Virus record (IMG/VR): IMGVR_UViG_2595698832_000001
Location: 1 to 64,000 of that record
Source of the DNA: a virus
Lineage: Duplodnaviria > Caudoviricetes
DNA: 64,000 nt
Direction: 5' to 3' (one strand)
This document shows, piece by piece, positions 3,967 through 40,727 of the stretch. How positions within the stretch are numbered: position 1 is the stretch's first letter; each line of letters opens with the position of its first letter. Under the pieces are notes generated by a model. That model was not told where the DNA came from. It saw nothing but the letters and a program-made list of their open reading frames with translations, and did no database searches. The position numbers and the translations under genes are program-made.

Positions 3967-4144
3967 TCAAAGCCTCATTTAATTTCAATTATTTATAGCA
4001 GCTATCTGCTTGTAATGTGCGAACTATTATTTAGCCATCTTATCACAGGTTTTACCTTTCATTTTTATCCTTTGGGATATTATATTATAAAATATCTTAA
4101 AGGCTTCTTATATAGATTCAAATAAATAACATAAAAGGTTCATT

Positions 4145-5897
4145 ATGAAAGATTTAGCTCTTGGTGCTTATACCCAAAAAGATTTAACCAAAAAAGTCAA
4201 TACTATTGGTGATGTAACAACATTAAAAACCGAAGCAAAAACTACAGCAGTAGGAGCTATAAATGAACTTAAAGATAATTATGAAAAAATTAAAAATTCT
4301 ATAGATACCAATACCGCTAATTTCTTAATAGATCAAAAATTAGATCCGGTTAAAGAAGATGTTAAAGCTTTGCATACACAAGTTGATAATTATTCTATAA
4401 ACTATAAGCAATCAAATGATCCCACACCTTCTATAAATCCTACAATCGATAGTGCAACTTTTTTTAAATACAGCTACTGGAGTTATTTGGACTTGTATAG
4501 ATAAAACAAAAAATAAAAATCGCTGGATAAACGGAAACGGAGAAGTTGCTGGTGCACTTCCAAGTAATCCAAATCTTGGTGATATTGGTTTTGGAGTGGG
4601 TATTGCACCTAAAGAAATTACTAACAAATATAATATGTATCCTATGCTAGGAACTTTTACTCCTGGTCATATGAATTATGGAAATTATACTGATATCCGC
4701 GGTAATGTTATGGTTTGGATACCTAAACTTTATATTAAGACTTCAAATGTAGACGCTGCACCATATTACGGATTAAAAGTTGAAGTTTCCGCTACTCAAG
4801 AAGAAGGTTTTTGGTGCCATAGAGCATTTATTAATAATGGTAAAGAAATTCCAGGTTTTTTTATAGACAAATATCTAGCATCTAACCAAGGGGGTATTTT
4901 AGGTTCTAGGTGTAATACAGTGCCTTTAACCTGTGATTCTAAATTTAACTCTGTAGCTTTAATCTCAGGAGTTTCTGCAAAGGTTGCTTTGGGTAATAAA
5001 ATTACAGAAGATTCTGATTTAGATTCTGATGATTTAAAATCTATTAAGAATAGAAATTCAAGCTTCTTAGAAGCTGTTAAAAATAGAGGCCCTGAATTTC
5101 AAGTATTAACTATATTTGCTTATAATTATTTGATTTTGTTGTCTAAATGTATATATCAAAATGCTTATAATACAAATAATTTCAATAATATTGAGTTTGC
5201 TAAATCAAGAACAGATAGATTTGCATTTATTCAAGGTATGAATACTATGCAAAGTGTGCAAAGAGATATTCAAGCTATTCATAATTTAGATTATAAAACT
5301 GCTGGGTATACGGATGGTACTAACGCGTTGTATAGAACAGGTAGTGTTTCAGATTCTAAAATGGGTAAAATTAGTCATAATGGTCACGCGTGTGGGGTTG
5401 TTGATTTAGTAGGCGGGTTATTTAATCTGGCTATAGGCGCTATGTATGGTTATATATTAGATAGAAGTTATTTTGGTGTTATCAAAGAAAGCACTAATAT
5501 AACAGATTTAGATTTAGAATCTTTAGTAGATACTAATAATTATGATGAAACTACATTACCAGCAGAGATTATAACTTATATAAACAGTGACTCTGATAGC
5601 CCATTAGGTTATTTTAAGGATGTTGGTGCCAAGTACAATAACACAAATGTAAGAACAACTTCTGAGTATAAAATAGATTCTTGCGGTATTCCAAAATGGA
5701 GTGTTTTACAAGATGCTACCGTAGACACCACAAGACAAACTTTTCAATGGAGAGGAAATCCAACGTATAAAGATACTTTAACATTTCCTATAGTAGGTTC
5801 AAGTTTTAAAGATAGTTTTTATTCAAGTATTCAATTCCAAAAAGATACACAAGGTGTTGAATTTGGAACTCGCTGCATATTATTACCCGAAATTTAA
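4145..5897 (+). CDS. Tail fibre / virion structural-type protein (frameshifted)
   Basis: ORFs 4145-4504 and 4452-5897 join (DSATF|LNTATG) at the T7 run near 4459-4465; IGDVTTLKTEAKTTAVGAINEL fibre motif; GNVMVWIPKLY/HRAF/IDKY motifs. Confidence 0.6.
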
Positions 5898-5947
5898 AAC
5901 TTAAAAATTTAAATTTAAAATATAATATTATATAATATATAAGAATT

Positions 5948-5983
5948 AAAAATTCGAGTTTAAAAAAATTAAACTCGAGTTTT
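5948..5983. terminator. Bidirectional intrinsic terminator
   Basis: Imperfect inverted repeat aaaaattcgagttt...aaactcgagttttt between convergent genes. Confidence 0.5.
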
Positions 5984-6028
5984 TAGTAATTAAATCATTA
6001 ATTTCATTATAATACTCCTTACGTTTGA

Positions 6029-7546
6029 TTAGATTTTGATCTCGCAAATCCAAAAATCTTTATAATTTATTATAGAACCTATACAAATACCCACTAATGG
6101 TAAATCTAATTCAGTTTCACTTGCAATACCCAACCCATTAGAATCAGCATAGATATAATCACCTATACTAGGTTTATTTTTGCAATAAACTGGAGTTCTA
6201 CCTTTCAATGCAATTGGAACACCATCACATTCATTATTCAGAATTACACCAGGATTTTTTGAAACAACACCAAATAATTTCATACCTGGGTTAAATAAAT
6301 TTACACCACAAGCATCTATGCCTAATATATGACCTGCTTTTATATTCGATTTAATAGATTCTGGAACTTCATAATACTCAGCTAAGTCAGCATATTTAGC
6401 TTGCAAAGCAGTTCCTTGAAAATTAACAGCATATATATTAGACCATCTTAAAGCTGTAGATCCTAAACTAAATTTATTATCTTGAGTAGGGGTATCACTG
6501 GTTGAACGTCTCAAGAAATCTTTAGAATCTAATCCATCTAATTTATCAGCATCTATTTTACCCAAAGATCCTGGTACTTTTTGAAGTAATAAAGCAATTT
6601 CTTCTGGTGTAAATCTACTTGCTGGTAAGAAATAACCTGCGTGTTGACCATCTAATGTATCAGCATCAACTCCAGATAAATGCCCATCCACTTCTTTAAT
6701 TTTATTGAGAAATTCAGCATTCCAATAATCGTAAGTAACTCTTTTTTTCAGATCAGAATCTATGCGATTTAAATAATCTCTTAATCCTTTAATAGAATCA
6801 ATACCCAAAGATTCAATCATATCTCTATTTGTTTTAATCCAGTTAACAATTTCCTGAAGTTCATCTAAGTTTATGTCATTTGAAGTTAAAATTGTGTTAA
6901 TATGATCTATTAATCCTTTAAGAACCTTACCTTGGTAAGCACTTAATGGTAATCTGCGATTATCAGATTCTAAACTATCAACGACAGATTCTTCAGTCAA
7001 TGCTATTCTAACAAAATCATCAAACTCTTGTTTAGAGCAGAAATAATCTTTGTGTTCACCATCAAGTCTATCAGCATTTGTAACAGTTTCATTATCAAAC
7101 CAATGTTTTAGACGATCTTCAACGTGTTTAACGGTTGTTGGGTGAAAAGTATTAGATTCTTCATAATCTTGCATTGAACTAGGATCATAAGGATCTTGAT
7201 TGTCTTTAGCTAGGTAATTACTGGCGGGAAATTCAGTATATTCTTGATATTTTGTAACGACCCAAAAACTAGGTTCCTCACTAGGAACTTTATTAACACA
7301 TTCTTGCACACATTTATAATCTACTTCATTATATCTTACAATTTCATTAACTTCGTAGTTCTCGGATTGATTCCACTCTAGTGGTGCTTTTCCGTTCACC
7401 ATTTGAAATTTGTTATAGATATCAGTTGTCTCTTTTTTAAGACGAACTTGAAATAGATTTATAGTATCTTCAGTAGGTACCATACCGTGTTTAATAGCAT
7501 AATCAGTATAAAAGGTTTTTTGATTTTTGTGTGTAAAAGCCATCAC
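6029..7546 (-). CDS. Tail fibre/spike protein with CBM5/12-like module and C-terminal peptidase G2 (IMC)-like chaperone domain
   Basis: WNQSENYEVNEIVRYNEVDYKC..PSFW module; repeated DADxLDG motifs; YADLAEYY...GVVSKNPG...IALKGRTPV C-terminus. Confidence 0.7.
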   Translation of the reverse strand: MMAFTHKNQKTFYTDYAIKHGMVPTEDTINLFQVRLKKETTDIYNKFQMVNGKAPLEWNQSENYEVNEIVRYNEVDYKCVQECVNKVPSEEPSFWVVTKYQEYTEFPASNYLAKDNQDPYDPSSMQDYEESNTFHPTTVKHVEDRLKHWFDNETVTNADRLDGEHKDYFCSKQEFDDFVRIALTEESVVDSLESDNRRLPLSAYQGKVLKGLIDHINTILTSNDINLDELQEIVNWIKTNRDMIESLGIDSIKGLRDYLNRIDSDLKKRVTYDYWNAEFLNKIKEVDGHLSGVDADTLDGQHAGYFLPASRFTPEEIALLLQKVPGSLGKIDADKLDGLDSKDFLRRSTSDTPTQDNKFSLGSTALRWSNIYAVNFQGTALQAKYADLAEYYEVPESIKSNIKAGHILGIDACGVNLFNPGMKLFGVVSKNPGVILNNECDGVPIALKGRTPVYCKNKPSIGDYIYADSNGLGIASETELDLPLVGICIGSIINYKDFWICEIKI

Positions 7547-7621: not shown

Positions 7622-8051
7622 TTAGAATGTGTATGTATTTTTAGTTTCTTTAATAGATTCTAACGAAAAGGTTATAATGCCATTTCTAGCTTTAAATGAA
7701 TTTTGTTTAAGTTTAAAGTTATTAACAGAATCCAAACTAACTCTGATTGTATTATAACCAGTTATAAAAAATGATTTAGCATCATCTATAACTTTATATC
7801 TAACTACAATTTCATCAGGTTTAAAGTCTAATTCAATTGTTTTAGAACCATCTTCTTGGACTCCTGGTGCCAATACAACAACATCAATTCCCGAACTAGT
7901 TTCAGTTGTTAAATACGAAGTAACTGATGATGGATATGTTTCCATTGTTTCTGAAACATTTTTTAATAAATCTTGAAGTATTTTTGTTATTAAATGATAT
8001 GCTAGGCATATCTAAGAATGGTGATCTAAGAAAATTGCTTAATTCTAACAT
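7622..8051 (-). CDS. Small heat-shock protein (Hsp20-like), frameshifted
   Basis: VVVLAPGV...FKARNGIITFSL alpha-crystallin-like motifs; upstream ATG at 8051 with RBS is out of frame near the homopolymer at ~7985. Confidence 0.6.
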
Positions 8052-8144
8052 ATAATTCCTTTTTGTTTTAATTATATTATATTTTTACTTAAATAATTCT
8101 TAAATCTTAGAGCTTTTAATGTTTAAATTAAAGTTTAAAAGTTA

Positions 8145-10617
8145 TTACCATTCTAACTCATCATCACCTGGTTCTATAGTTCCTGGTAAAAAATCCCTTG
8201 TATACATAATATCTTCGTATTCTTCGCGTATTATTTGAAAATCATTATAATTAGTTCTAGCTTCACCCAAGGTATTTATGTATGTAGATTTATTATCATA
8301 TATAGTTAAGATTTCTCCGGTTAAATCTTTTCCTATCAACACACCATTTGAGAATAATTTATTACCTTCATAATCAGTGGATTTTAAAGTCGTTGACCAG
8401 ACTTGAGCTGCGTTAGAACCAGTAACAGTTGTTTCCACTGCTGTCATATTACCATAGAATTCTAAAAATATATTTTCAGGTATGGTTAATGTTATTATAT
8501 TTCCAGATATTTCATAACTAGCTTCAAAATATGAATAATCATCAGTATCGTCAGGTAAATCAAATTCTTGCGTGGTTACAATTTTTTGAAAAGTTTCTGG
8601 ATCTGTTTTATTAGCTCTTGATAGATAATTACCAAAACTTGAATCTTTTTCTATAGTTACCATAATTTTTGACAAATCGTCGGTCATAAAACTTGGGTAC
8701 CCATATATAAACACAGCTTTTTTAGTATTAGCATTTACTGCTATAATTTTAGCTATTTGAATTTTATTCTTAGGACTTCCAATTAAAAATGATGCTTCCG
8801 CAATATCACTAAAAGTTAATTTAATAACCTGATTAGTAACAACGTCGTATGTAGGTGCATTAGATATTGTTTCTAAGTTATCAAAATTATCATTGATATA
8901 CTTAAGATTTTTATATTTTGCTTCCCAGTAATTATAAGTATTTGGTTTTTTATATGAACCTTTGAAAGAGTCTTTTGAAATTGATATAATTGACCATAAA
9001 GATTGTCGTTTTCTTTCAACTTTACAATAAAAATTATCTTGCCATTTTGCTTCATTTGCTATGCTTGATAAGCGAGTAATGTTATCATTAATAGTTTTAA
9101 CCTCAGCAGCTAACTCATCTTTTGAAACTTTGTTTGCTATATCCTTTGAAACTTGATTTTGAATAGTATCTAATGATTTTGTTATAGAATCTACAACACC
9201 TTGTATGCTATCAATATTTTGATTGATTTGGTTTTTGAAATCTTCAATAGTCTTTTGTATTTCAGACATATCAAAATTATTAATAATAACTTCAAATTCT
9301 TCTATTTTTTTAGTATGTATTGGTTTCTAATTGTTCTATCTTGCTTGTTAAATCTTGTTGAACTTTTTGGAGATTTTCTGTTATAGCATCCAAATCAATA
9401 CCATCTAAAGAGCCTTGTAATCTTGCGATTTGTTCATTAATACTCTGTATAGTTTCAGTGAAATTTAAATCTCTGATTGCTTGGTTTATTTTAGAATCTA
9501 CACCTGATTGCGTTTCAAATAATTTAATTTGTGAATTAATAGAATTTAAAGAATCTTGTATTTCTATTAACTTAGCATTATAATTTGTATTTAATACAAA
9601 ATCACTAGCTGGGTGTGATTCTAATAATGCTGAATTTGGTGCAACATATGTAGAATCATCCCTATTTAATTTAGAATCTAAAGCAGCTTGCAAGCCTTTG
9701 ATATTAGCAATTGTTAAATCATCAAATTTTTCGCGGTTTTCTTCTATATAATTAATAATATCTTGAAGATTTTTAAAATCATCATCTGTAATATTAATTA
9801 CTTTCTTTATTTCGTCTATTATACCTTTAAGAACTTTGCCTTGATTAGCACTTAAAGCATCTTTAGTAGAATCTGATTCTAAATTATCTTGTATGTTTAT
9901 ATGTAAATCTATTTTAGCTTGTTCAATTAATGCTCTGAGTTCAGAATCATCATATAAAGTATCTTGAGTTTCTATGCTTTCACTCGAGCCGTCAGCTCTT
10001 CTTAAGGTTATTGTTCTACCATTGGCAGTAAGAGCTTGTGTGCTTGGTAAAACTCTGGAATTAGTATTAAAAGTATCTATGAAATTCTTATAATATGAAT
10101 TAAAGTTAAATTCTGAAAGCTCACCATCTTTAATAGTATAAGTAGTATCTGTAAAAACTGGGTCTTTCCCACCGGCTTGCTTTCTAGCATCATCCCAAGA
10201 AATTTTCTTATTTAACTCAAATTGAGTCAAGTTAGAAATTGGCTTGTCGATGTCGGCAGTGTTATCAACGTTTTCTAAACCAAGCGTTTTCTTTGTTATA
10301 TTGTGTGGGTTTTCAGCTGTATAATGTCTTTGAAATTCTAATTTTGTAGAATTAGAAATTGGCTTGTCAATGTCAGCAGTGTTATCAACGTTTTCAAGAC
10401 CTACGTCTTTTTTGTTTAATTCAACGTCACCTTGTTTACCCGCAACCGTGTTAACAACACCTTGGATAGGAGTCCATTGTATTTCATCATTTACAAGCAT
10501 ACCAATTTCATTTGTATCGATAGCAAGAACGATTTCACCTTGTGTTGGTTTTGCGTCATTTACAAAATGTTTTTTAAGATTACGTCTTAATAAAATACCA
10601 GTTTTTATTTCAGCCAT
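8145..10617 (-). CDS. Tail fibre-like protein (~820 aa; frameshift near 9314)
   Basis: ORFs 9310-10617 and 8145-9269 join after a 1-nt removal; VNTVAGKQGDV, duplicated GLENVDNTADIDKPIS and ALSANQGKVLK fibre motifs; coiled coil. Confidence 0.7.
10232..10395. repeat. Internal 44-bp direct repeat encoding ENVDNTADIDKPISN twice
   Basis: 10232-10275 vs 10352-10395, two mismatches. Confidence 0.8.
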
Positions 10618-22333: not shown

Positions 22334-23122
22334 TTATGAACTAACATTACCAGCACTATTAGAATCCACTAATAATGATATTATAGGGTCTTCAAGGCTC
22401 ATAAATCTGGATTCTAAATCATAGTCAAATGCTCTCAAATTAGCACCATCAAAACAATCTTTATGTGCTATAAATTCGTAAGGAACGCCAAAATATTGAC
22501 ATTCTTGAAATAATCTAGGTTTTACATCAAAACATACAGGATCTTGTATATATAACATTTCATTAAATTGTTCGAATATATTAGACATAATATTTAAATC
22601 ACTTCTAGTTATTTCAGATTCTTTTTTAATGTATTTTGCTCTGGTATTAATAAATTTTTGATTCTTTTGAAATCTAGGTTTATTCAATATCTCAAAAAAT
22701 ATTTTACTTCTATAATTAACTGATTTACCGACAGGTTTTAAATGCTCGTATTCCACAAAATAATTACACTCGAGTGTATGATTTTTTGAGCCGCTTAAAG
22801 CATATAAATTCTTGCATTTTAAAAATGGTTTATATCTGTCGAAATGATCTATACAGTACATTTCAAATAAAATTAAATTATTAATAGACATAAAAGATTT
22901 TTTAAATATTATAATATTCTTAAAACAATCTTTATTAATGTTATATTTAATTTCAAGATATTTTTTAACAATCTCAAGAGATTCAAAAGTAGTATCTATT
23001 ATAAGAATAATATTTTTATTATATAACCAAGAGAAATAAAAATATTCAAAAGCATTCGAAAGTGACCCATCTATGGGGATTCTCGATTTGCAAGGTCCTA
23101 TTAAAATAGCATTCGTATTCAT
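22334..23122 (-). CDS. Hypothetical protein, possibly GT-B glycosyltransferase-like
   Basis: 262 aa; FDVKPRLFQECQYFG resembles the GT-B C-terminal motif; next to the rSAM/GT2 cluster. Confidence 0.4.
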   Translation of the reverse strand: MNTNAILIGPCKSRIPIDGSLSNAFEYFYFSWLYNKNIILIIDTTFESLEIVKKYLEIKYNINKDCFKNIIIFKKSFMSINNLILFEMYCIDHFDRYKPFLKCKNLYALSGSKNHTLECNYFVEYEHLKPVGKSVNYRSKIFFEILNKPRFQKNQKFINTRAKYIKKESEITRSDLNIMSNIFEQFNEMLYIQDPVCFDVKPRLFQECQYFGVPYEFIAHKDCFDGANLRAFDYDLESRFMSLEDPIISLLVDSNSAGNVSS

Positions 23123-23171
23123 AGCTTTATAAGTCTAGTATTTTCAGCCTTTTTAGTATAACAAGCATAGG

Positions 23172-23423
23172 TTAGAACTTTGTTATATTATCAACTTCTA
23201 AAAATTTAAGATTACCATCTTCACAAACTGAAAGATCTCCAAGTCTACCATAATATATTTTTACATTTTCAAAATAATTTTCAGAAAGGAATTTATATGT
23301 ATCCGACATACTTTTAGTAGACGCGTTTATATAAAAATTATTAGCGATCTTAACAAAATGATTATCGAATAATGTTAATTCTGTATCTTTATCTATAGCT
23401 TCACTAAAAGAAATAAAATACAT
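23172..23423 (-). CDS. Hypothetical protein
   Basis: 83 aa ORF with AAGGAG RBS. Confidence 0.55.
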   Translation of the reverse strand: MYFISFSEAIDKDTELTLFDNHFVKIANNFYINASTKSMSDTYKFLSENYFENVKIYYGRLGDLSVCEDGNLKFLEVDNITKF

Positions 23424-23447
23424 ATATTACTCCTTAATTAGAAATTT

Positions 23448-23741
23448 TTATCCACAAATAACATTTCCAGATCCTTGCGCTACAGCTTGCCCACAACTAA
23501 TGGCATCACCTATTCTACAAGCAGGTTTTGAATTGACCATAACAGTACCAGAACCTGTAACAATGCTTCCACCGTGTGGTGGTGACGGGCTAGGACTTGG
23601 GTGCGGTATCATAGGATCACCTTGTCTAACTGTACTAATTGAATTAGTCAAGACATTCGTAGAACCACTCGAAATTGCATTAGGTGGAAACGAAGAATGA
23701 CCTGTACTAAAATCAACACCAACTCTAGTTAAAGGAGGCAT
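23448..23741 (-). CDS. PAAR spike-tip protein (T4 gp5.4-like)
   Basis: TRVGVD, VRQGD, PACRIGD, GS.NV repeats. Confidence 0.9.
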   Translation of the reverse strand: MPPLTRVGVDFSTGHSSFPPNAISSGSTNVLTNSISTVRQGDPMIPHPSPSPSPPHGGSIVTGSGTVMVNSKPACRIGDAISCGQAVAQGSGNVICG

Positions 23742-24166
23742 TATTTGGCTCCGTTTAACATATCTTTTAATATCTCTTTATCAGTTTTAGATTTAGTTTT
23801 AGCTTTTGATGCTTTAGACTTACTTTCTTTAGCTTTAGACTCAGTTTTAACATCTTTGACTTTAGTTTTAGTTTTAGTTATCCCGGCTTCGGTTTCAGAC
23901 TTTGTATTTAAATATCTAGTTTTGGCATTACTAGTAGATATTAAATAATCATTTAATTTGATATGAACGTCAATACCTTTAATTTCTTCTATAATTTTAT
24001 TGCGAGTGCATATAACTTCTTCTATACAAATAGCTACTAAAATCAAAGCATAAGTTGCTGGCTCTACGACAACCTTACCTGCTGTAATTAAAGACACTAT
24101 ATCACAAATAATTGATATTATTAGTATTATATAAAATGAGAACTTAATATTTTTGAATATTTTCAT
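23741..24166 (-). CDS. Membrane protein with Lys-rich C-terminus
   Basis: Two N-terminal TM helices and a KTKSKA-rich tail. Confidence 0.55.
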   Translation of the reverse strand: MKIFKNIKFSFYIILIISIICDIVSLITAGKVVVEPATYALILVAICIEEVICTRNKIIEEIKGIDVHIKLNDYLISTSNAKTRYLNTKSETEAGITKTKTKVKDVKTESKAKESKSKASKAKTKSKTDKEILKDMLNGAK

Positions 24167-24190
24167 TTAATTCCTTTCATTGAATTTAGT

Positions 24191-25075
24191 TTAGTTTAGC
24201 TTGATGACTCCAGCAGACATAGTAATACTAGGTCCTGCTGAAATTGTTTCGCTGCCGGACACATTTATATTCTGGTTACCAGAAATTGTTACATTTTCAT
24301 TACCTCCTACTTTACGTGTTCTATCAGAACCTACCTCTAACTTTTCGTTTGACTTAACATTTAAATTGTGGTTAGCGTCATATTTCTCATTAACGTCTTT
24401 TTTAACGTATTCATTTTGTTCACCATCGACGTGCAATAAATTATTTTCTTGTGTATATTCTTTTTTATTCTTTACAGTATTGATAGTCATTTCACCATCT
24501 TTATTCATAGTAATTGTAGTACCAGTTCTGTGGTGAAAAATAATATTACCATCTTCATCACTCCATTCTTCGTAATGACCTGTAATACTATCATATACTC
24601 TAGTATTTTTAGGTTTTGTATTTTTGTGTATTTCGTTTTCACTTGCAATGCAGCCTATAACAATAGGTAAGTTTGGGTTATTATTGTCTAAAACACAAAA
24701 TACCCAAGTTCCTGGTGTTAATATAACGTTATAACCAAATCCTGGATATTTTCCAGATCTTGTTATAGTTTTGTATCCAGATTTAGAACCTTTACCATCT
24801 ATATTGTTGGCATATTCATCAGAACCATCTGAAGGTGCTGGATAATAACCAATATAATCAATACTTTGCATAACTTCTGCCCAAGGTAAATCACTTTCCT
24901 GTATTTGATTATATTTAGTGTCCTTTTCTCCAGAAGTTACTGGGTATTGTCCAGGAGTAGCATTTTCACTCATTCCGTGAAGTTCAAATATACGAACTTG
25001 AACTCTACCTCCTTTTTTAGGGTCATCATTATTAACAACAATACCACGATATATTCTAAATTCTGATTTATTCAT
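24191..25075 (-). CDS. gp5: Baseplate hub/spike gp5-like protein (no lysozyme domain)
   Basis: YRGIVVNNDDP..GRVQVRIFELH, LPWA OB-fold motifs; C-terminal beta-helix repeats; adjacent PAAR. Confidence 0.85.
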   Translation of the reverse strand: MNKSEFRIYRGIVVNNDDPKKGGRVQVRIFELHGMSENATPGQYPVTSGEKDTKYNQIQESDLPWAEVMQSIDYIGYYPAPSDGSDEYANNIDGKGSKSGYKTITRSGKYPGFGYNVILTPGTWVFCVLDNNNPNLPIVIGCIASENEIHKNTKPKNTRVYDSITGHYEEWSDEDGNIIFHHRTGTTITMNKDGEMTINTVKNKKEYTQENNLLHVDGEQNEYVKKDVNEKYDANHNLNVKSNEKLEVGSDRTRKVGGNENVTISGNQNINVSGSETISAGPSITMSAGVIKLN

Positions 25076-25188
25076 TTGTTGCCTTTTATATATTATATAT
25101 TATATAATATTTTAGCTTAAATCTAGTTTAATATTCGATTGGTTTTAAAAGTTTTAAAAACTTTGATTTTAAAATCTAAACTAAAGTT

Positions 25189-25767
25189 TTAATTTAAAAT
25201 GTATTTAAAAACTTTTGTATTCTGATGTTTAAAAACTATAATTTTATTATTAATATCATTTGGTTCTAAATCTAATTTACATTCATTGACTTTAAAAAGA
25301 TTTAAATTATTAAACTCAAATGAGTTATATTCTTTAGATCCTTTATTATTATAATCAATACAAATTAAAAAATCTTTAAAATCGAACTCTTTAAATAAAA
25401 TTAAAGCTTCTAAAACATTACCCATATACAACTGAGCATCAGAAATTAAAACAAAGATTTTAGCTTCTGGTTTTGCTAACTTCATTCCTATACCTATACC
25501 TAAAGCATTACCTAAGGTATAATCCGCATAGTTTACACAATCTATAAAATCGTGTTCTATGCCAGGCCTATCATAATTTGTAATTCCCATTGCTTCTAAC
25601 ATAGGAGTACATCCATATGGTTTACCAATTAATTTATAATCAAAATCTTTTACAAGATTCCAGAGATCTTTAAACCAAGGATATATAGATTTTGCAGATT
25701 CTAAATGTGTTTCTTTTCTAATACCTGGATTCAAAGTTAAAAAATTATTGATGTCTGCTTCACACAC
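25189..25767 (-). CDS. Transketolase N-terminal (TPP-binding)-like protein
   Basis: TLGNALGIGIGM..IFVLISDAQ..G..EA..IDYN resembles the TK motif GSLGQGL..GDGE..EG..WEA..DxN. Confidence 0.65.
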   Translation of the reverse strand: MCEADINNFLTLNPGIRKETHLESAKSIYPWFKDLWNLVKDFDYKLIGKPYGCTPMLEAMGITNYDRPGIEHDFIDCVNYADYTLGNALGIGIGMKLAKPEAKIFVLISDAQLYMGNVLEALILFKEFDFKDFLICIDYNNKGSKEYNSFEFNNLNLFKVNECKLDLEPNDINNKIIVFKHQNTKVFKYILN

Positions 25768-25806
25768 GTATACCCTTCAATTATATTATCAAAATATTTT
25801 AATAGG

Positions 25807-26172
25807 TTATGTCATTTTGGTATAGATTATGTCTAAACTGGATTTTAAACTTTTTATTTCTTTTAAAATATCCTTTTTAGATAGTTCACCATTATAACTA
25901 ATTTCTGAAATCATTTCAGATTTTTCTACTTTTGATTCTAATATTTCTAATAAATCTCTGACGATACCTGCATAATCTGAAGTAGTGAATAAATCTGTTT
26001 TAAGTAATATATTCAAACTTTGTATCTTAGATGCTTGTGATCTTAAGACGCTTATTTCTTTACTAATATTTCGATTTTTTACATCCAATATATCAGAAAT
26101 ATATTTGAATGTAGGCACTTCCACATCATCTAATAATGCATCAATTTCTTCTTGACTTAATATCTGTGCCAT
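25807..26172 (-). CDS. Small protein with FliM-like N-terminal CheY-binding peptide
   Basis: MAQILSQEEIDALLDD; AAGGAG RBS; helical remainder. Confidence 0.7.
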   Translation of the reverse strand: MAQILSQEEIDALLDDVEVPTFKYISDILDVKNRNISKEISVLRSQASKIQSLNILLKTDLFTTSDYAGIVRDLLEILESKVEKSEMISEISYNGELSKKDILKEIKSLKSSLDIIYTKMT

Positions 26173-26205
26173 TTTAATCTCCTTAATTAATATATTTATA
26201 ACATT

Positions 26206-26742
26206 TTAAGCTTTGAATGGATTTGCCGAATAACCGTCAGCATTTCTAGTATTCCATTTAAATTCTTTAAAGTGCTCCTCTACGTATTTAACATTTAAAA
26301 ACATTGCCGAAAAGTTCTCACATTTATCAACTTTCCATTTGTTTAATATTTGTTTAAAATTAGTACATTCATAAAACATTTTATTCATATTCTTAACATT
26401 TCCAACATTCCAAGAATTTAAATTTTGATTAAATGATTTACATTTAAAGAACATTTCTCTAGCATCTTGAAGTTTAGAAGTATTCCATTTACTAATATCT
26501 TCATTAAAATCTTTTAAATTATAAAAACAACGTCTAGCAGTAACAACATTGCTGGTATTCCAAGTGCCAATACCTTTGAAATTAGTTCTTTTTGTTCCAG
26601 AAAATAATTCATTAAAATCTGTTATATCACTAGTATCTATATCACTTAATTTAATACTAAGATCATTGATTAATTCTTTAAGATCTGCTTTAGTTTTTGG
26701 TTTATATTTTTTGTTTTCATAAATTAAATTATAGAAGTTCAT
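26206..26742 (-). CDS. DUF285/BspA-type (PARCEL) repeat protein
   Basis: Repeats W(N/D)(T/V)S(N/K)V..M..MF..C..FNQ.L..W. Confidence 0.8.
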   Translation of the reverse strand: MNFYNLIYENKKYKPKTKADLKELINDLSIKLSDIDTSDITDFNELFSGTKRTNFKGIGTWNTSNVVTARRCFYNLKDFNEDISKWNTSKLQDAREMFFKCKSFNQNLNSWNVGNVKNMNKMFYECTNFKQILNKWKVDKCENFSAMFLNVKYVEEHFKEFKWNTRNADGYSANPFKA

Positions 26743-26805
26743 CAGGTACCTTTATGTATATTTATAACATTTTAAGCTGCTAGCACATTCTAAATACTAA
26801 AATAC

Positions 26806-27475
26806 TTAAGATGCTAACAGCATTGCTGTAGTACGCTTAAAAACATTTAATGGGTCAATAAAATCATTAACACAAACTAATTCACCCCCACGATTAAAGA
26901 AAATATTATCCGGAGTTACCATAGTTGATTCGCGTCTAAGAATATCAAAATCTCTAGCATCGGTATTGAAAAATGTTTGCGATCCTGAATTTCTTAAAAA
27001 AATCATTAAGTTCATCGAATTTTAAATCTTTTGTATTTGTAATAATTATACCCTTTGGGTTCTTTGTATTGAATAAATAATTGCGTGTAGTTAATTCTAT
27101 AAATTCATTGAATTCTTTTAGTGTATCCTTAGATGGTTCTTCATAACCATATTCAAATGGTATAGTACTAAACTTGTCAATAATAGAGCCTGAGTTAATA
27201 ACAATTTTTCTATATAAATTTTTATTGTTTATAATAAAATCATATTTAATTGAACCAAACTTTACATTTTGTGTTAATTCTGGATCTAAAATAATTAGTT
27301 TAATAATATTATCAATAGATTCTTTAGTATCTATAAAAAATAATTCAGTACTTAGATCAAAATCATCGGATAATTCGAACTTACCTGGACTTGTTTCTTC
27401 GTAGTCTTTAAAGAAACGAATAATTTGAATACTTGGGTTGACGGTAATATTAGATAATTCAATTGCAGAAATCAT
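26806..27475 (-). CDS. Hypothetical protein (frameshifted)
   Basis: Overlapping ORFs 26954-27475 and 26806-27015 join at the A-run near 27000. Confidence 0.5.
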
Positions 27476-27713
27476 TTTTAAACTCCTTTAAACGTAAATT
27501 AATACTTTTTTTTACATAACAAAAAAATTAAAGTCGATTTTAACCGTGTTTTTGAGTGGTTATAACCGTATTTAGATTTTAGTGTATAACACTTAGTTTT
27601 TAGATTTACACTAAAGTGTTATATGTTTAGAACCAGAATCTAAAATTGTTTTATTATATAATAAAAAAGCTTAAAAATTAATTATGGAGCTACAAAAGCT
27701 CCTGGAATTTACA

Positions 27714-28319
27714 TTATGAAAATTTAGGGTTTAAAAATCTACAATGTGATTTTGGTGTTTCCCAATATTCAACTGCTACAACATTGACGTCTAAATCTTT
27801 TAACATTTTTTCAGCTATTTCTAACCACCACTTACATAAGTTTTCACTAGTAGGACAAAAATCAACGAAAACAAAACCTTCTAATTTTTCTTGTATAGCA
27901 TTTTTATGTTTTGTTTGGCTGTATTTAGATTTTATTTCATCAATAACAGATTGTTTAATAGTTTTATATCCATATTCTTGAGTATCGAAATATTGTGGAT
28001 CTAAACCATCTAAAGATTCTGAATATAATTCTGGTAATTCGTGAATATGACCAGGATCATTAAAATCCCAAACAAATTTATGATCAATAACTTCATCAAC
28101 TAGTTTTTTATAACAATTTAAAAATTTGAAATCTAAAACCATATTATTGATTAGTTCATCTGAACCTAAGAATAGTTTTATTACACCACTGTGCGAATGA
28201 TGATGTCTGCAAGCACAAATACTATCGATACTATATTTTGGATCTAATGTTTGAGTCCAAACTCTGTGACCCATACAAAAATCAAATTGTTTGTCTATAG
28301 TCCATTTAAATGTTTTCAT
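27714..28319 (-). CDS. queD: 6-carboxytetrahydropterin synthase QueD
   Basis: FDFCMGHR, CRHHHSH, LDF, DHK, PTSENL, WETPKS motifs. Confidence 0.9.
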   Translation of the reverse strand: MKTFKWTIDKQFDFCMGHRVWTQTLDPKYSIDSICACRHHHSHSGVIKLFLGSDELINNMVLDFKFLNCYKKLVDEVIDHKFVWDFNDPGHIHELPELYSESLDGLDPQYFDTQEYGYKTIKQSVIDEIKSKYSQTKHKNAIQEKLEGFVFVDFCPTSENLCKWWLEIAEKMLKDLDVNVVAVEYWETPKSHCRFLNPKFS

Positions 28320-28333
28320 AAAATCTCCTTGTC

Positions 28334-29320
28334 TTAATCATTCACTTCAATAGAATCTATATTATTAGTTCCAAATATAAATTCTCCAATAGCATTATAA
28401 TACTCAGTATCTTTAATAACACAACGAATATAACCATCACTTGAAGATTTGAAAATGTGTGCACCACCGCCTAGCACAACCAAGAAATCTAGTTTATCCA
28501 ATATATTGCTATATCTTTCATTTACTAATGCTAAAATTTCTCTTAAGTATTCTTTTTTAATACCTTCAATTTCTTTAGTATAATCATATTTTTGGCCTCT
28601 TAGTTTATAAACACCCGTATCTAAGATTTCTCTAGCCTCTGGCAATGAAATAGATCTGTTATGTTTTTCATTTACTAATTTAGCAACTTGCGAAGCTATT
28701 TTCATCAATCCGTGTTGTGAAATTCCTTCGAATAATTCTGGTGAAGTAACTCCTTTATTAACAAGAACTAAATCTAATGTATTGAATCCAATATCCACAA
28801 TACAATATGTTGAATCACCTAAGTATTCTTTTTGAAGATTTGGAAAATCATTTCCGAATTTTTCATAACTTAACTTAGCTCCAGCACCTTGAGGTAACAA
28901 CATTACATTATAATTGTATTCAGTACCATCAACCACAAAATGACTTAGTACATTTTGAAAATATCCAGATTGTTTAATTTCTGCAATACTTAATCCTGAA
29001 ACTATTAAATCTACTTTACTGAGTTTAGCAATTTTCACTGCGTGATTCAATAACAATGGTCCAAAATATTCTAAATTCTTATAAGTATCTAAATCTATGA
29101 TATTAGAACTTGGTAAATGTTTGGCATCTTCACCTACCATATAATAACGTTCATTGTAATGAACTATATTATCATTTTGAACACCTTCAAGTTTTTTGGT
29201 TTGGCCTATAACACTTGGAAATTTAAACTTTTTAATTATTTGACCATCACCAGTGCCTACACAAACTTTAACAAAGCTGTAACCTATGTCTACACCTAAA
29301 ATAACTTTTTCTGTTTTCAT
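28334..29320 (-). CDS. ParM/StbA-family actin-like ATPase
   Basis: GVDIGYSFVK, PQGAGA, VDIGFNTLD, LGGGA, NAIG actin-fold motifs. Confidence 0.85.
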   Translation of the reverse strand: MKTEKVILGVDIGYSFVKVCVGTGDGQIIKKFKFPSVIGQTKKLEGVQNDNIVHYNERYYMVGEDAKHLPSSNIIDLDTYKNLEYFGPLLLNHAVKIAKLSKVDLIVSGLSIAEIKQSGYFQNVLSHFVVDGTEYNYNVMLLPQGAGAKLSYEKFGNDFPNLQKEYLGDSTYCIVDIGFNTLDLVLVNKGVTSPELFEGISQHGLMKIASQVAKLVNEKHNRSISLPEAREILDTGVYKLRGQKYDYTKEIEGIKKEYLREILALVNERYSNILDKLDFLVVLGGGAHIFKSSSDGYIRCVIKDTEYYNAIGEFIFGTNNIDSIEVND

Positions 29321-36740: not shown

Positions 36741-36955
36741 TGGAGCCTTTTGTCTTTTGATTTTATTTATGATTTAATAACCTTGAGTTTTAAATTACAA
36801 AAATTTAAACTTTAGTTTTAGTTGTTTTAAAAGCTTTAAACTTTAGTTTAGATTGTTTATATGTTATGATATTATATTCTATACCATCTATGAAATATTA
36901 TAAGAATATATAAATATCTATAATTATATTATAAGTTTTCTTAAAAAGGATTTAA

Positions 36956-37585
36956 ATGTATAGTATTGGAGAATTTTCTAGAATTATAGGTGTTACTAGG
37001 ACAACCTTAAGAAATTGGGATAAAACAAATAAACTAAAACCTATTTTACTCGAATCGGGACATAGAAGATATACAGATGAACATTTATCAAAGATAAAAC
37101 ACATAGACTCTGATGACAAACTGAATATCGTCTACTGTAGAGAATCTACAAAGTCACAAAAGAAATCTTTAGATCTACAGATAGAAAATATAAAACAATT
37201 TTGCTTAAAGCAAGGTATATCTATAGATAAATGTATAAGCGAATTTGGTAGTGGTCTTAATTTCAAGAGAAGGGGATTTCTAGAGATTCTTAATCTGGCA
37301 ATAAATGGTAAAATAGATAGGCTAATTATCTACTATAAGGATAGACTGTGTAGATTTGGCTTTGAAATGTTTGAGGAGTTATCTAAAAAGTATAATTTTA
37401 AGATAATTGTCGTTGATAATACAGAAACAAAGAGTAGAGATAAAGAATTTGCAGACGATATAATTGCTATAATACATTTCTTTTCTATGAGATTGTATGA
37501 ATCTAGAACATATAAGAAAAATCTCAAAGATGCTGAAGAAAGTATTCAAAAAAGCAAAAGAAGAAATATAAATAGATATAAATAG
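36956..37585 (+). CDS. tnpA: IS607 serine transposase TnpA
   Basis: MerR-like HTH (GVTRTTLRNWD..GHRRY), YCREST, GSGLNFKR, YKDRLCRFGF, FSMRLY. Confidence 0.92.
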   Translation: MYSIGEFSRIIGVTRTTLRNWDKTNKLKPILLESGHRRYTDEHLSKIKHIDSDDKLNIVYCRESTKSQKKSLDLQIENIKQFCLKQGISIDKCISEFGSGLNFKRRGFLEILNLAINGKIDRLIIYYKDRLCRFGFEMFEELSKKYNFKIIVVDNTETKSRDKEFADDIIAIIHFFSMRLYESRTYKKNLKDAEESIQKSKRRNINRYK

Positions 37586-37616
37586 CTATAAATAGATATA
37601 AAGAAAGGAGTTTAGA

Positions 37617-38862
37617 ATGTTATCTAGAAAGATAAGAATTGATAGCTTTATCTCTGATAAAGAAAAAGAAGAAATTTATCAATATTCTAAATCTCTTTCT
37701 ACTATCTATAATGAATGTCTAGATCTCCTTAAAGAGAATTTGAATTTTAAAGATCTATCTAAAATCACAAAAGGTAGATCGAAAGCAACAGGTTTATATT
37801 CAAAACATATACAGAATACCTCTAGAGAGGTTATAAATGCTGTAAAATCTTATCTAGACGAAAAAGAAGAATGATAAAACCGCTAGATTTCCAAAATTAT
37901 ATAGAGAATATAGTCCTATCATTATGGATATAAATCTTTCTTCTAAGATTGTAGAGGTTGTTAATTCTGAAACAGGAGAGGTAACTCTTGAAAAGAAATA
38001 CTATCCAGGTGGAGGATTTAAACTAGAAGGTAAGAAAATAAACTTTACTTCAATAGGATTTGAATTAGATTTAAGTAAATGCCCTTACTATGATATAGAA
38101 CTTATCAACTATAAGACTTTAAAACAGATAGTCATCAAGATTGATGTGAATAAGAGAATAGATTGTATTTTTGTTTTCTCAGAGAAAAAACAAGAAAAAG
38201 CACTAAATCAAAATTTTATTTCTATAGATCTAGGAATAAGCAGCATAGCATCTTGTTACTCAAATAAGATTGATTGTATGAAGATACAAACTAAGAGATT
38301 TAAAGGTTTAGAAAGAGCTATAAATGAACTTAAGTCTAAAAGAGATAAGAAGAAGAAAGGTTCAAGAGGATATAAAAAACTTAACAAAGCAATCAGAAGA
38401 AAGCAAGCAAAACTAACTAATAAAAGAAAAGACTATCTTCATAAGACCTCAAAGACTATAGTAGATCTCTGTATTCTTAATGGTATAGATAACATCATTT
38501 GTGGGGCTATCAAGACTAAAAAATTAAAGAAAGACTATAAAACAAGTTTAAATAAATCAACTCAAAATGAAGGACTATTGAGTAGATTTAAGGGTTTCTT
38601 AAAGTATAAAGCAGAGAATAAAGGATTGAACTTTTTACTTGTGAATGAAGCATATACTTCTCAGACTAACTGTCTTACAGGAAAAAGAGAGCTAGACTCG
38701 AATCTTGGTATTAGAGAGGTAGAATTAAGTCCAGGTTTCAAAGTTGATAGAGATATAAATTCAGCTGTCAATATAGCCAAAATATGTGGGGATTTATGGT
38801 TATCCCATATCTTTGAGAAGAATAGACTTCTCAAGATACAAAAAATGAATATTACTTTGTAA
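37617..38862 (+). CDS. tnpB: TnpB RNA-guided nuclease (frameshift near 37860)
   Basis: ORFs 37617-37874 and 37924-38862 linked via DKTARFPK; ISIDLG, YLHKTS, NEAYTSQ, DRDINSAVNI. Confidence 0.85.
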
Positions 38863-40695: not shown

Positions 40696-40727
40696 TATTT
40701 ATATTTATAATTATATACTAAGTATCC

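Follow-up and report, generated by a model that had tools for sequence, protein, structure and literature searches.

Why does a small bacteriophage protein begin like the flagellar switch protein FliM, and what could such a beginning do in an infected cell? The question is raised by an ORF (P0001) at positions 25807 to 26172, on the minus strand, of a 64,000-nt stretch of viral DNA (the window) that belongs to a 182,833-bp virus genome. In FliM, the conserved EIDAL motif at the N terminus is a binding site for CheY, and most FliM proteins are reported to retain this motif (PMC6946799).

The first residues of a phage protein match the N terminus of FliM

The ORF has an ATG start codon (its end coordinate counts the stop codon) and encodes a 121-aa protein, the N terminus of which is MAQILSQEEIDALLDD. 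Codons 4 to 14 (positions 26131 to 26163, minus strand) spell ILSQEEIDALL, a match to the FliM-type N-terminal EIDAL peptide. On the same strand, a Shine-Dalgarno sequence, AAGGAG, can be read at positions 26179 to 26184, with the ATG lying 6 nt further on, and AAGGAG or AAGGA is also present upstream of the homologous genes of phages NCTC12673, DA10, and CP220. A previous, sequence-only reading of this DNA had described a 121-aa ORF with its own ribosome-binding site (RBS), and both the ORF and the AAGGAG sequence bear that description out.

The start of the phage protein, MAQ-ILSQEEIDALL, can be set beside that of FliM from Escherichia coli K-12, MGDSILSQAEIDALLN, which we confirmed to be as it had been quoted in the earlier reading; the E. 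coli peptide, ILSQAEIDALL, is one position off the phage 11-mer. A scan of 185,579 species genomes yielded a single tblastn-confirmed locus, and this proved to be the real FliM of a MAG. That protein begins MAEILSQEEIDALLKNVEV and matches 17 of the first 19 residues of the phage protein. We read 19 FliM genes in the GTDB order and class of this MAG and found that 18 begin M[A/P]EILSQEEIDALL (M[A/P]E-ILSQEEIDALL), such that ILSQEEIDALL stands at the same N-terminal offset as in the phage protein and the M-A-x prefix is shared. Throughout the phylum of the MAG, the back-translated 11-mer matched exactly once in 27 of 37 genomes (reversed control, 0), and residues 1 to 60 of the MAG FliM, used as a query, retrieved 13 FliM proteins. 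Because the GTDB order, class, and phylum of the MAG comprise only 5, 21, and 37 genomes, respectively, they lie outside the Campylobacter clade; although the MAG is labeled "Campylobacterales bacterium," its FliM is no stand-in for Campylobacter FliM. A presumed identity with the host peptide is extrapolated from the FliM proteins of bacteria outside the Campylobacter clade, together with the reported conservation of the FliM motif (PMC6946799).

The likeness ends soon after the peptide. BLASTP similarity to FliM was essentially confined to about residues 1 to 19 or 20, and Pfam searches at E <= 10 gave neither a FliM (PF02154) nor a SPOA (PF01052) match in the 121-aa protein. The FliM middle domain, PF02154, had no match in the whole phage genome either. 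FliN_N (PF16973) was unlisted at E <= 10, although weak and short matches are mostly lost to the filters of HMMER, and an Atlas feature search with residues 1 to 24 pointed to a FliN_N cluster at 0.77, a weak lead only. Judged by its sequence, the 121-aa protein is not a member of the FliM family.

The gene belongs to a family found in Campylobacter phages

The source of the window is, by sequence comparison, a group II Campylobacter phage of the CP220/CPt10 type (genus Firehammervirus). A 2-kb region around the ORF matched 13 phage records, all of them from Campylobacter phages, with CPt10 and CP20 at the top (94.5% identity). The protein itself is a member of PHROG 8774 (function unknown), which it matched over its full length (E = 5.9e-57; residues 1 to 121 against profile positions 1 to 120 of 128). 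When 50,697 phage records were searched by tblastn, 27 contained a match, and all 27 were Campylobacter phages. Homologs in Firehammervirus are 78 to 96% identical to the protein, those in Fletchervirus (NCTC12673, CP81, CP8, PC14, and the F-series) about 39 to 46%, and that of the 35-kb Campylobacter phage DA10 37%. A word-index search returned 9 homologous proteins, and 6 matches at E <= 0.001 were obtained when 1.84 billion representatives were searched exhaustively with HMMER.

Only one longer protein, P0011, was matched. This 230-aa protein, encoded on a 3,761-bp Logan contig, consists of an upstream ORF (MISAIELSNIT...) fused to residues 13 to 121, without the motif. It corresponds to window positions 26954 to 27475 joined to 25807 to 26136, with the intervening DUF285 gene absent, and may represent a deletion variant or an assembly artefact.

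Within the window, the motif gene is part of a co-directional minus-strand block spanning positions 22334 to 29320. By the names used in the CP220/CPt10 annotation, this block includes genes for a ParM-like actin ATPase (28334-29320), a QueD-like enzyme (27714-28319), and, upstream of the motif gene, a DUF285/BspA-like protein (26206-26742); downstream of it come a thiamin-diphosphate-fold protein (25189-25767), a gp5-like hub (24191-25075), and a PAAR protein (23448-23741), with a membrane protein encoded between the last two. The baseplate hub, PAAR, and DUF285 proteins are gene neighbors in both the window and CPt10, while the NCTC12673 homolog (gp149) sits downstream of gp4 and the DA10 homolog sits ahead of the terminase gene. 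The gene neighbors therefore differ across the three lineages, and the gene thus behaves like a mobile accessory gene within Campylobacter phages.

Nor is the gene indispensable, since it is truncated in some phage records; in two phages, tblastn coverage of the homolog was only 68%. In L016, a 132,662-bp Fletchervirus-type record, the gene is shortened at a poly-A tract that has 6 A residues, against 7 in L015 and L017, a difference that may reflect phase variation or an error in sequencing. The group II phage CPt10 has a second, Fletchervirus-type copy of the gene (L018:1016-1160), which is frameshifted after ~45 codons; the genome from which the window comes has one copy.

The motif is conserved among distant homologs

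Whether the motif is conserved in homologs from related phages had been proposed as a check on the sequence-only reading. We ran this check on an alignment of 12 homologs (alignment A2), the three most distant of which are 33 to 39% identical to the query. M1, I4, L5, S6, E8, E9, I10, D11, and L14 are invariant in all 12 proteins; Q7 is kept in 11 of them (R in the other), A12 is replaced by E or K in 3, and L13 is replaced by I in 2. Thus, 8 of the 11 motif positions (residues 4 to 14) are invariant down to 33% identity, an outcome that speaks for the earlier idea. Taken together, the position of the peptide, its identity, and its conservation make the apparent mimicry of the FliM N terminus well supported.

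The motif codons, too, hardly differ from one lineage to another (9/11, 9/10, and 10/10 the same). In the remainder of the gene, 59 to 73% of the residues that are identical are encoded by the same codon, and CAA, GAA, and GAT account for 86 to 90% of the Q, E, and D codons of the phage. The nucleotide identity of the motif therefore needs no extra constraint, because codon bias suffices to account for it, and an added nucleotide-level constraint, which we considered, is inseparable from that bias.

A predicted helical body follows the motif

An AlphaFold2 model built on the 12-sequence alignment has helices at residues 7 to 15, 22 to 58, 64 to 84, and 99 to 120 (mean pLDDT, 75.9; pTM, 0.42); the single-sequence model was poor (pLDDT, 50.9). 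Residues 16 to 21, between the first helix and the helical body, are nonhelical in the model, and we propose that the motif helix is exposed and tethered by this flexible linker of ~6 residues. Residues 22 to 120 (positions 25813 to 26109, minus strand) make up the conserved helical domain, as delimited by the model and by conservation. Outside the motif, 14 core positions are invariant: I25, K32, I50, L53, L56, T59, F62, Y67, I70, D73, L74, L78, L103, and L113. The conservation of this hydrophobic core implies that the C-terminal part of the protein is a folded module, and a conserved C-terminal domain in turn suggests a second function, which would be superfluous for a plain decoy.

The domain resembles nothing that our searches could name. 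Foldseek gave no match in the PDB at E <= 0.001, and the best VIA-align score, a Z of 7.8 on the helical hairpin formed by residues 61 to 121, is within the range that this tool returns for common helical arrangements. A search of the ESM Atlas with the whole protein gave no usable match, and sequence searches of the PDB with the whole protein or with residues 1 to 25 gave chance rows only (E >= 0.35). The earlier description of the remainder of the protein as helical and unlike the FliM middle or SPOA domains agrees with the all-helical model and with the Pfam results given above.

A candidate late promoter precedes the gene

The motif gene had also been credited with an upstream promoter, a claim that survives only in altered form. 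Between positions 25000 and 27600, we counted 16 sigma-70-like sites, compared with 21.5 +/- 4.9 in shuffled sequences, and a sigma-70 promoter for the motif gene was accordingly rejected, the number of sites in this region being not above chance. An upstream site matching at 9 of 12 positions (26217-26189) is badly placed, because the transcript start would fall within the RBS.

A better candidate is the TATAAATA box at positions 26193 to 26200 (minus strand), 20 nt ahead of the ATG, which may be a T4-type late promoter. The octamer is depleted in the window ~3.5-fold (9 observed, 31.7 +/- 5.9 expected), and 7 of the 9 copies lie 16 to 42 nt upstream of the start of an ORF on the same strand. 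The candidate late promoters in the window are at positions 3990-3997, 26193-26200, 26759-26766, 36909-36916, 37567-37594, and 40696-40709, and one ORF, with its ATG at position 37617, is preceded by three tandem copies. The box is also kept in CP220, 19 nt ahead of the ortholog, and a weak homolog of the late sigma factor Gp55 (E = 0.37) appears among the gene products tabulated for CP220/CPt10 (PMC2853527). The depletion of the octamer, its placement upstream of ORFs, its conservation in CP220, and the weak Gp55 homolog together make it a reasonable inference that the TATAAATA box is a T4-type late promoter of the motif gene. If so, the motif protein would be expressed alongside the late genes. 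Four RNA sequencing runs that share the species label gave 0 reads at positions 24100 to 27500 and are uninformative on expression.

The same peptide begins other viral proteins

The back-translated heptapeptide L-S-Q-E-E-I-D had 1 match in the 182,833-bp phage genome (reversed control, 0). We also scanned ~2.9 million viral contigs of IMG/VR with back-translated motifs. ILSQEEIDALL was found in 7 stretches, namely, 6 Campylobacter phage records and 1 degenerate match in a lysozyme gene. Relaxing one position (I-L-S-Q-x-E-I-D-A-L-L) gave 10 stretches, 9 of them true, and in all 9 the motif starts <=5 residues from the start codon; the remaining stretch, IFTQEEIDAFL, is degenerate and lies inside a lysozyme. 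With the shorter L-S-Q-x-E-I-D-A-L-L, encoded with either serine codon family, we found 13 + 7 stretches, and in 11 of these 20 the motif lies within the first 8 residues. These 11 stretches come from the 6 Campylobacter records and from contigs L019, L021, L020, L034, and L031. The other 9 have the motif farther into the protein, in many cases with F substituted for L, and look like chance occurrences.

The same 152-aa Cys-rich protein, starting MRDILSQDEIDALL and with ILSQDEIDALL as its motif, is encoded by L019 (positions 4460-4915, plus strand) and L021 (positions 7990-8445, minus strand). In L019, a 152,642-bp uncultivated contig, the gene directly next to it (positions 4965-5837, plus strand) encodes a 291-aa protein that matches PF02154 (E = 2e-12), has no SPOA domain, and has a degenerate version of the motif (MSNVLSQEEVTALL) at its N terminus. 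Near this pair, a Clp_N-repeat protein is encoded. L020, an uncultivated 146,525-bp contig, encodes a 168-aa protein (positions 5728-6231, minus strand) starting MASILSQSEIDALL, with ILSQSEIDALL as its motif, and L034, an uncultivated 93,990-bp contig, encodes a 130-aa protein (positions 6725-7114, minus strand) starting MSDGSLSQDEIDALL, with LSQDEIDALL. Neither of these two proteins has a homolog among the 50,697 isolate phage records. In L031, the terminase large subunit (positions 4946-6529, minus strand; phrog_2, E = 2.5e-25) starts MSSLSQAEIDALL, which may be chance or a motif that is used.

The contigs L020, L034, and L021 fit large phages by their gene content: neighboring genes encode ThyX, SmpB, and a metallophosphatase in L020, a C5 methylase and TET-associated glycosyltransferases in L034, and a DNA methylase and Ro60/TROVE in L021. 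When the L034 protein was aligned with the Campylobacter family by using hhalign, only 23 columns were matched, comprising the motif plus TFK-x-I. Apart from the peptide, the small proteins of L019/L021, L020, and L034 have nothing in common with the Campylobacter family, suggesting independent acquisition of a portable module.

Host partners that the peptide might engage

Response_reg, CbiA, AAA_31, and FliM were all without a match in the phage genome, which implies that receiver-domain and MinD/ParA proteins are not encoded by the phage. Because no phage-encoded partner of these known kinds was found, a host protein is the probable partner. CheY is not the sole candidate, since the EIDAL peptide is also a ligand of FlhG: work on FliM of Shewanella putrefaciens reports its EIDAL motif to be necessary and sufficient for binding of this MinD-like ATPase (bioRxiv 10.1101/2022.04.21.489128).

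The reading that we favor, on a balance that falls somewhat short of probable, is that the protein is a stand-alone mimic of the FliM peptide, with phosphorylated CheY (CheY-P) as its first-choice partner and FlhG ranked second. The first ~15 residues would form a short amphipathic EIDAL helix, joined through the flexible linker of ~6 residues to the conserved three-helix domain, which would serve as a soluble scaffold. In the infected cell, the exposed peptide would compete with the FliM of the C ring for whichever host protein or proteins recognize it, preferably CheY-P, a choice that we infer. Capture of CheY-P would uncouple the motor from chemotaxis signaling, so that reversals would become fewer or cease, as in a cheY mutant. 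The affinity of free FliM peptide for CheY-P is only micromolar, and a monovalent decoy would therefore need high expression.

How such a protein would relate to infection depends on what is known of the phages that carry it. The sequence-only reading had appealed to the dependence of group II Campylobacter phages on motility. That much stands, inasmuch as CP220-type phages are reported not to infect a nonmotile motA mutant (PMC4293142), but the link to flagellum-dependent phages is weakened by the presence of the family in DA10 and in Fletchervirus, the genus of the capsule-dependent CP81-type phages in the same report. Given this distribution, which includes a phage as small as DA10, flagellotropic infection is not a requirement for carrying the family. 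For NCTC 12673, motor genes are described as needed for infection, with flagella dispensable for adsorption (PMC8540345), and gp149 is not among the six genes given as having amino acid changes in the NCTC 12673 variant MutC. The motility defect of carrier-state cells is traced to a host flhF mutation, accompanied by lowered phage adsorption, which its authors read as prevention of superinfection (PMC6282759). These reports lend plausibility to a motility effector, and none of them mentions the protein described here by name.

That the peptide instead targets FlhG seems to us unlikely, although several observations speak for it. FlhG sets flagellar number and, in Campylobacter jejuni, also prevents division at the poles; it would be held off the C ring and the poles, disturbing flagellar number or division, or the phage protein would itself be placed at the pole via FlhG. 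Besides the finding in S. putrefaciens, the C ring of C. jejuni is described as a requirement for polar FlhG, for the correct number of flagella, and for placing division at a distance from the poles, and C. jejuni fliM, fliY, and fliN mutants mislocalize FlhG, are hyperflagellated, and form minicells (PMC6946799). Moreover, the phage itself lacks a MinD/ParA protein, and phages with different receptors carry the family, which fits a general cell-biology target better than chemotaxis. On the other hand, a stable interaction between FlhG and a C-ring protein is given as undetected in C. jejuni (PMC6946799).

We also think it improbable that the peptide acts as a targeting tag instead of a decoy, bringing the helical domain to an EIDAL-binding host protein (CheY, a CheY-like receiver, or FlhG) where the C-terminal domain would do the work, for example, by recruiting a second protein or by oligomerizing. 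Conservation of the helical domain across three phage lineages, with its 14 invariant core positions outside the motif, would be expected of such a protein, and the occurrence of the same peptide on unrelated domains in other contigs (the Cys-rich 152-aa, 168-aa, and 130-aa proteins) is the pattern of a portable targeting module; the motif protein of L019, too, lies directly ahead of the 291-aa PF02154 protein. Set against these points, our searches gave the C-terminal domain no fold or family match, and this proposal overlaps the CheY-P and FlhG readings and is compatible with both.

It is very improbable that the likeness has no flagellar role at all, being a captured 5' piece of fliM kept for translation initiation, an N-terminal helix of phage-internal use (e.g., in assembly), or an accident of descent or chance: the gene does lie among baseplate and tail genes (those of the gp5-like hub and the PAAR protein), is possibly late, and has motif nucleotides almost identical between lineages, and 25 virion proteins of phage IBB_35 are reported to be without homology (PMC3322345; virion proteome, 38 proteins), but codon bias is enough for the nucleotide identity, a fixed structural role is made less likely by a neighborhood that differs in three lineages, the nine true ILSQxEIDALL occurrences in IMG/VR are all N-terminal, and an exact 11-residue match at the same offset, kept at 33 to 39% overall identity, is unexpected by chance.

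Significance of a FliM-type peptide in phages

Mimicry by means of short linear motifs is well known for viruses of eukaryotes. If the phage peptide works as it does in FliM, a virus would here have copied a bacterial short linear motif and would be intercepting a two-component signal or a MinD-like regulator. What is new, to judge from the sequences, is the switch-protein EIDAL peptide, itself already known, on stand-alone phage proteins. We found no account of such a phage protein, of its 10-letter peptide, or of the EIDAL motif in connection with phages in the literature that we searched (open-access papers and preprints), and neither "flagell" nor "chemotaxis" occurs in the CP220/CPt10 genome paper (PMC2853527). 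The earlier statement that no phage chemotaxis decoy of this kind had been described thus held up in the open-access literature.

The contigs outside Campylobacter phages raise the possibility, which we consider less likely than not, that phages have repeatedly adopted the N-terminal peptide of FliM as a strategy, in which a motif of ~12 residues is fused to different small domains and seizes CheY-P and/or FlhG signaling. PHROG 8774 would then be its first cultivable, testable case, and the L019/L021, L020, and L034 proteins would be independent inventions. The system is accessible, with cultivable phages and host and a motif of 11 residues, and the candidate partners differ in the phenotype that they predict: capture of CheY-P would abolish reversals, and capture of FlhG would produce extra flagella and minicells. 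If true, the proposal would provide a molecular handle on the entanglement of Campylobacter phage infection with host motility. Campylobacter phages are under development for poultry biocontrol, and a factor that alters swimming would be relevant to infected cells in the gut.

Comparison with known systems

FliM itself is the nearest point of comparison. Its 11-residue peptide is as far from the start codon as that of the phage protein and, as in the phage protein, is followed by a nonconserved linker. The two differ in what follows, FliM having middle (CheC-like) and SPOA domains in a protein of ~322 to 334 aa and the phage protein having neither in its 121 aa, and FliM is part of the C ring, which a phage-encoded protein cannot be. 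FliY and FliN have N-terminal EIDAL or degenerate EIDAL motifs, so that the peptide is a separable module found on more than one switch protein; they also have SPOA domains, in some cases together with CheC-like domains, whereas the phage protein does not.

Among phage proteins, Tip and Aqs1 of Pseudomonas phages are small proteins that shut down type IV pilus motility of the host and bind a component of that machinery, and superinfection exclusion has been proposed as a benefit. They address a different machine and, unlike the motif protein, are not known to copy a host short linear motif. FlaGrab (Gp047 of phage NCTC 12673; PMC4690887) is likewise described as a Campylobacter phage protein aimed at the host flagellum. 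FlaGrab binds flagellar glycans extracellularly, whereas the motif protein, in which we saw no signal sequence, would exert its effect from the cytoplasm, at the switch or in signaling.
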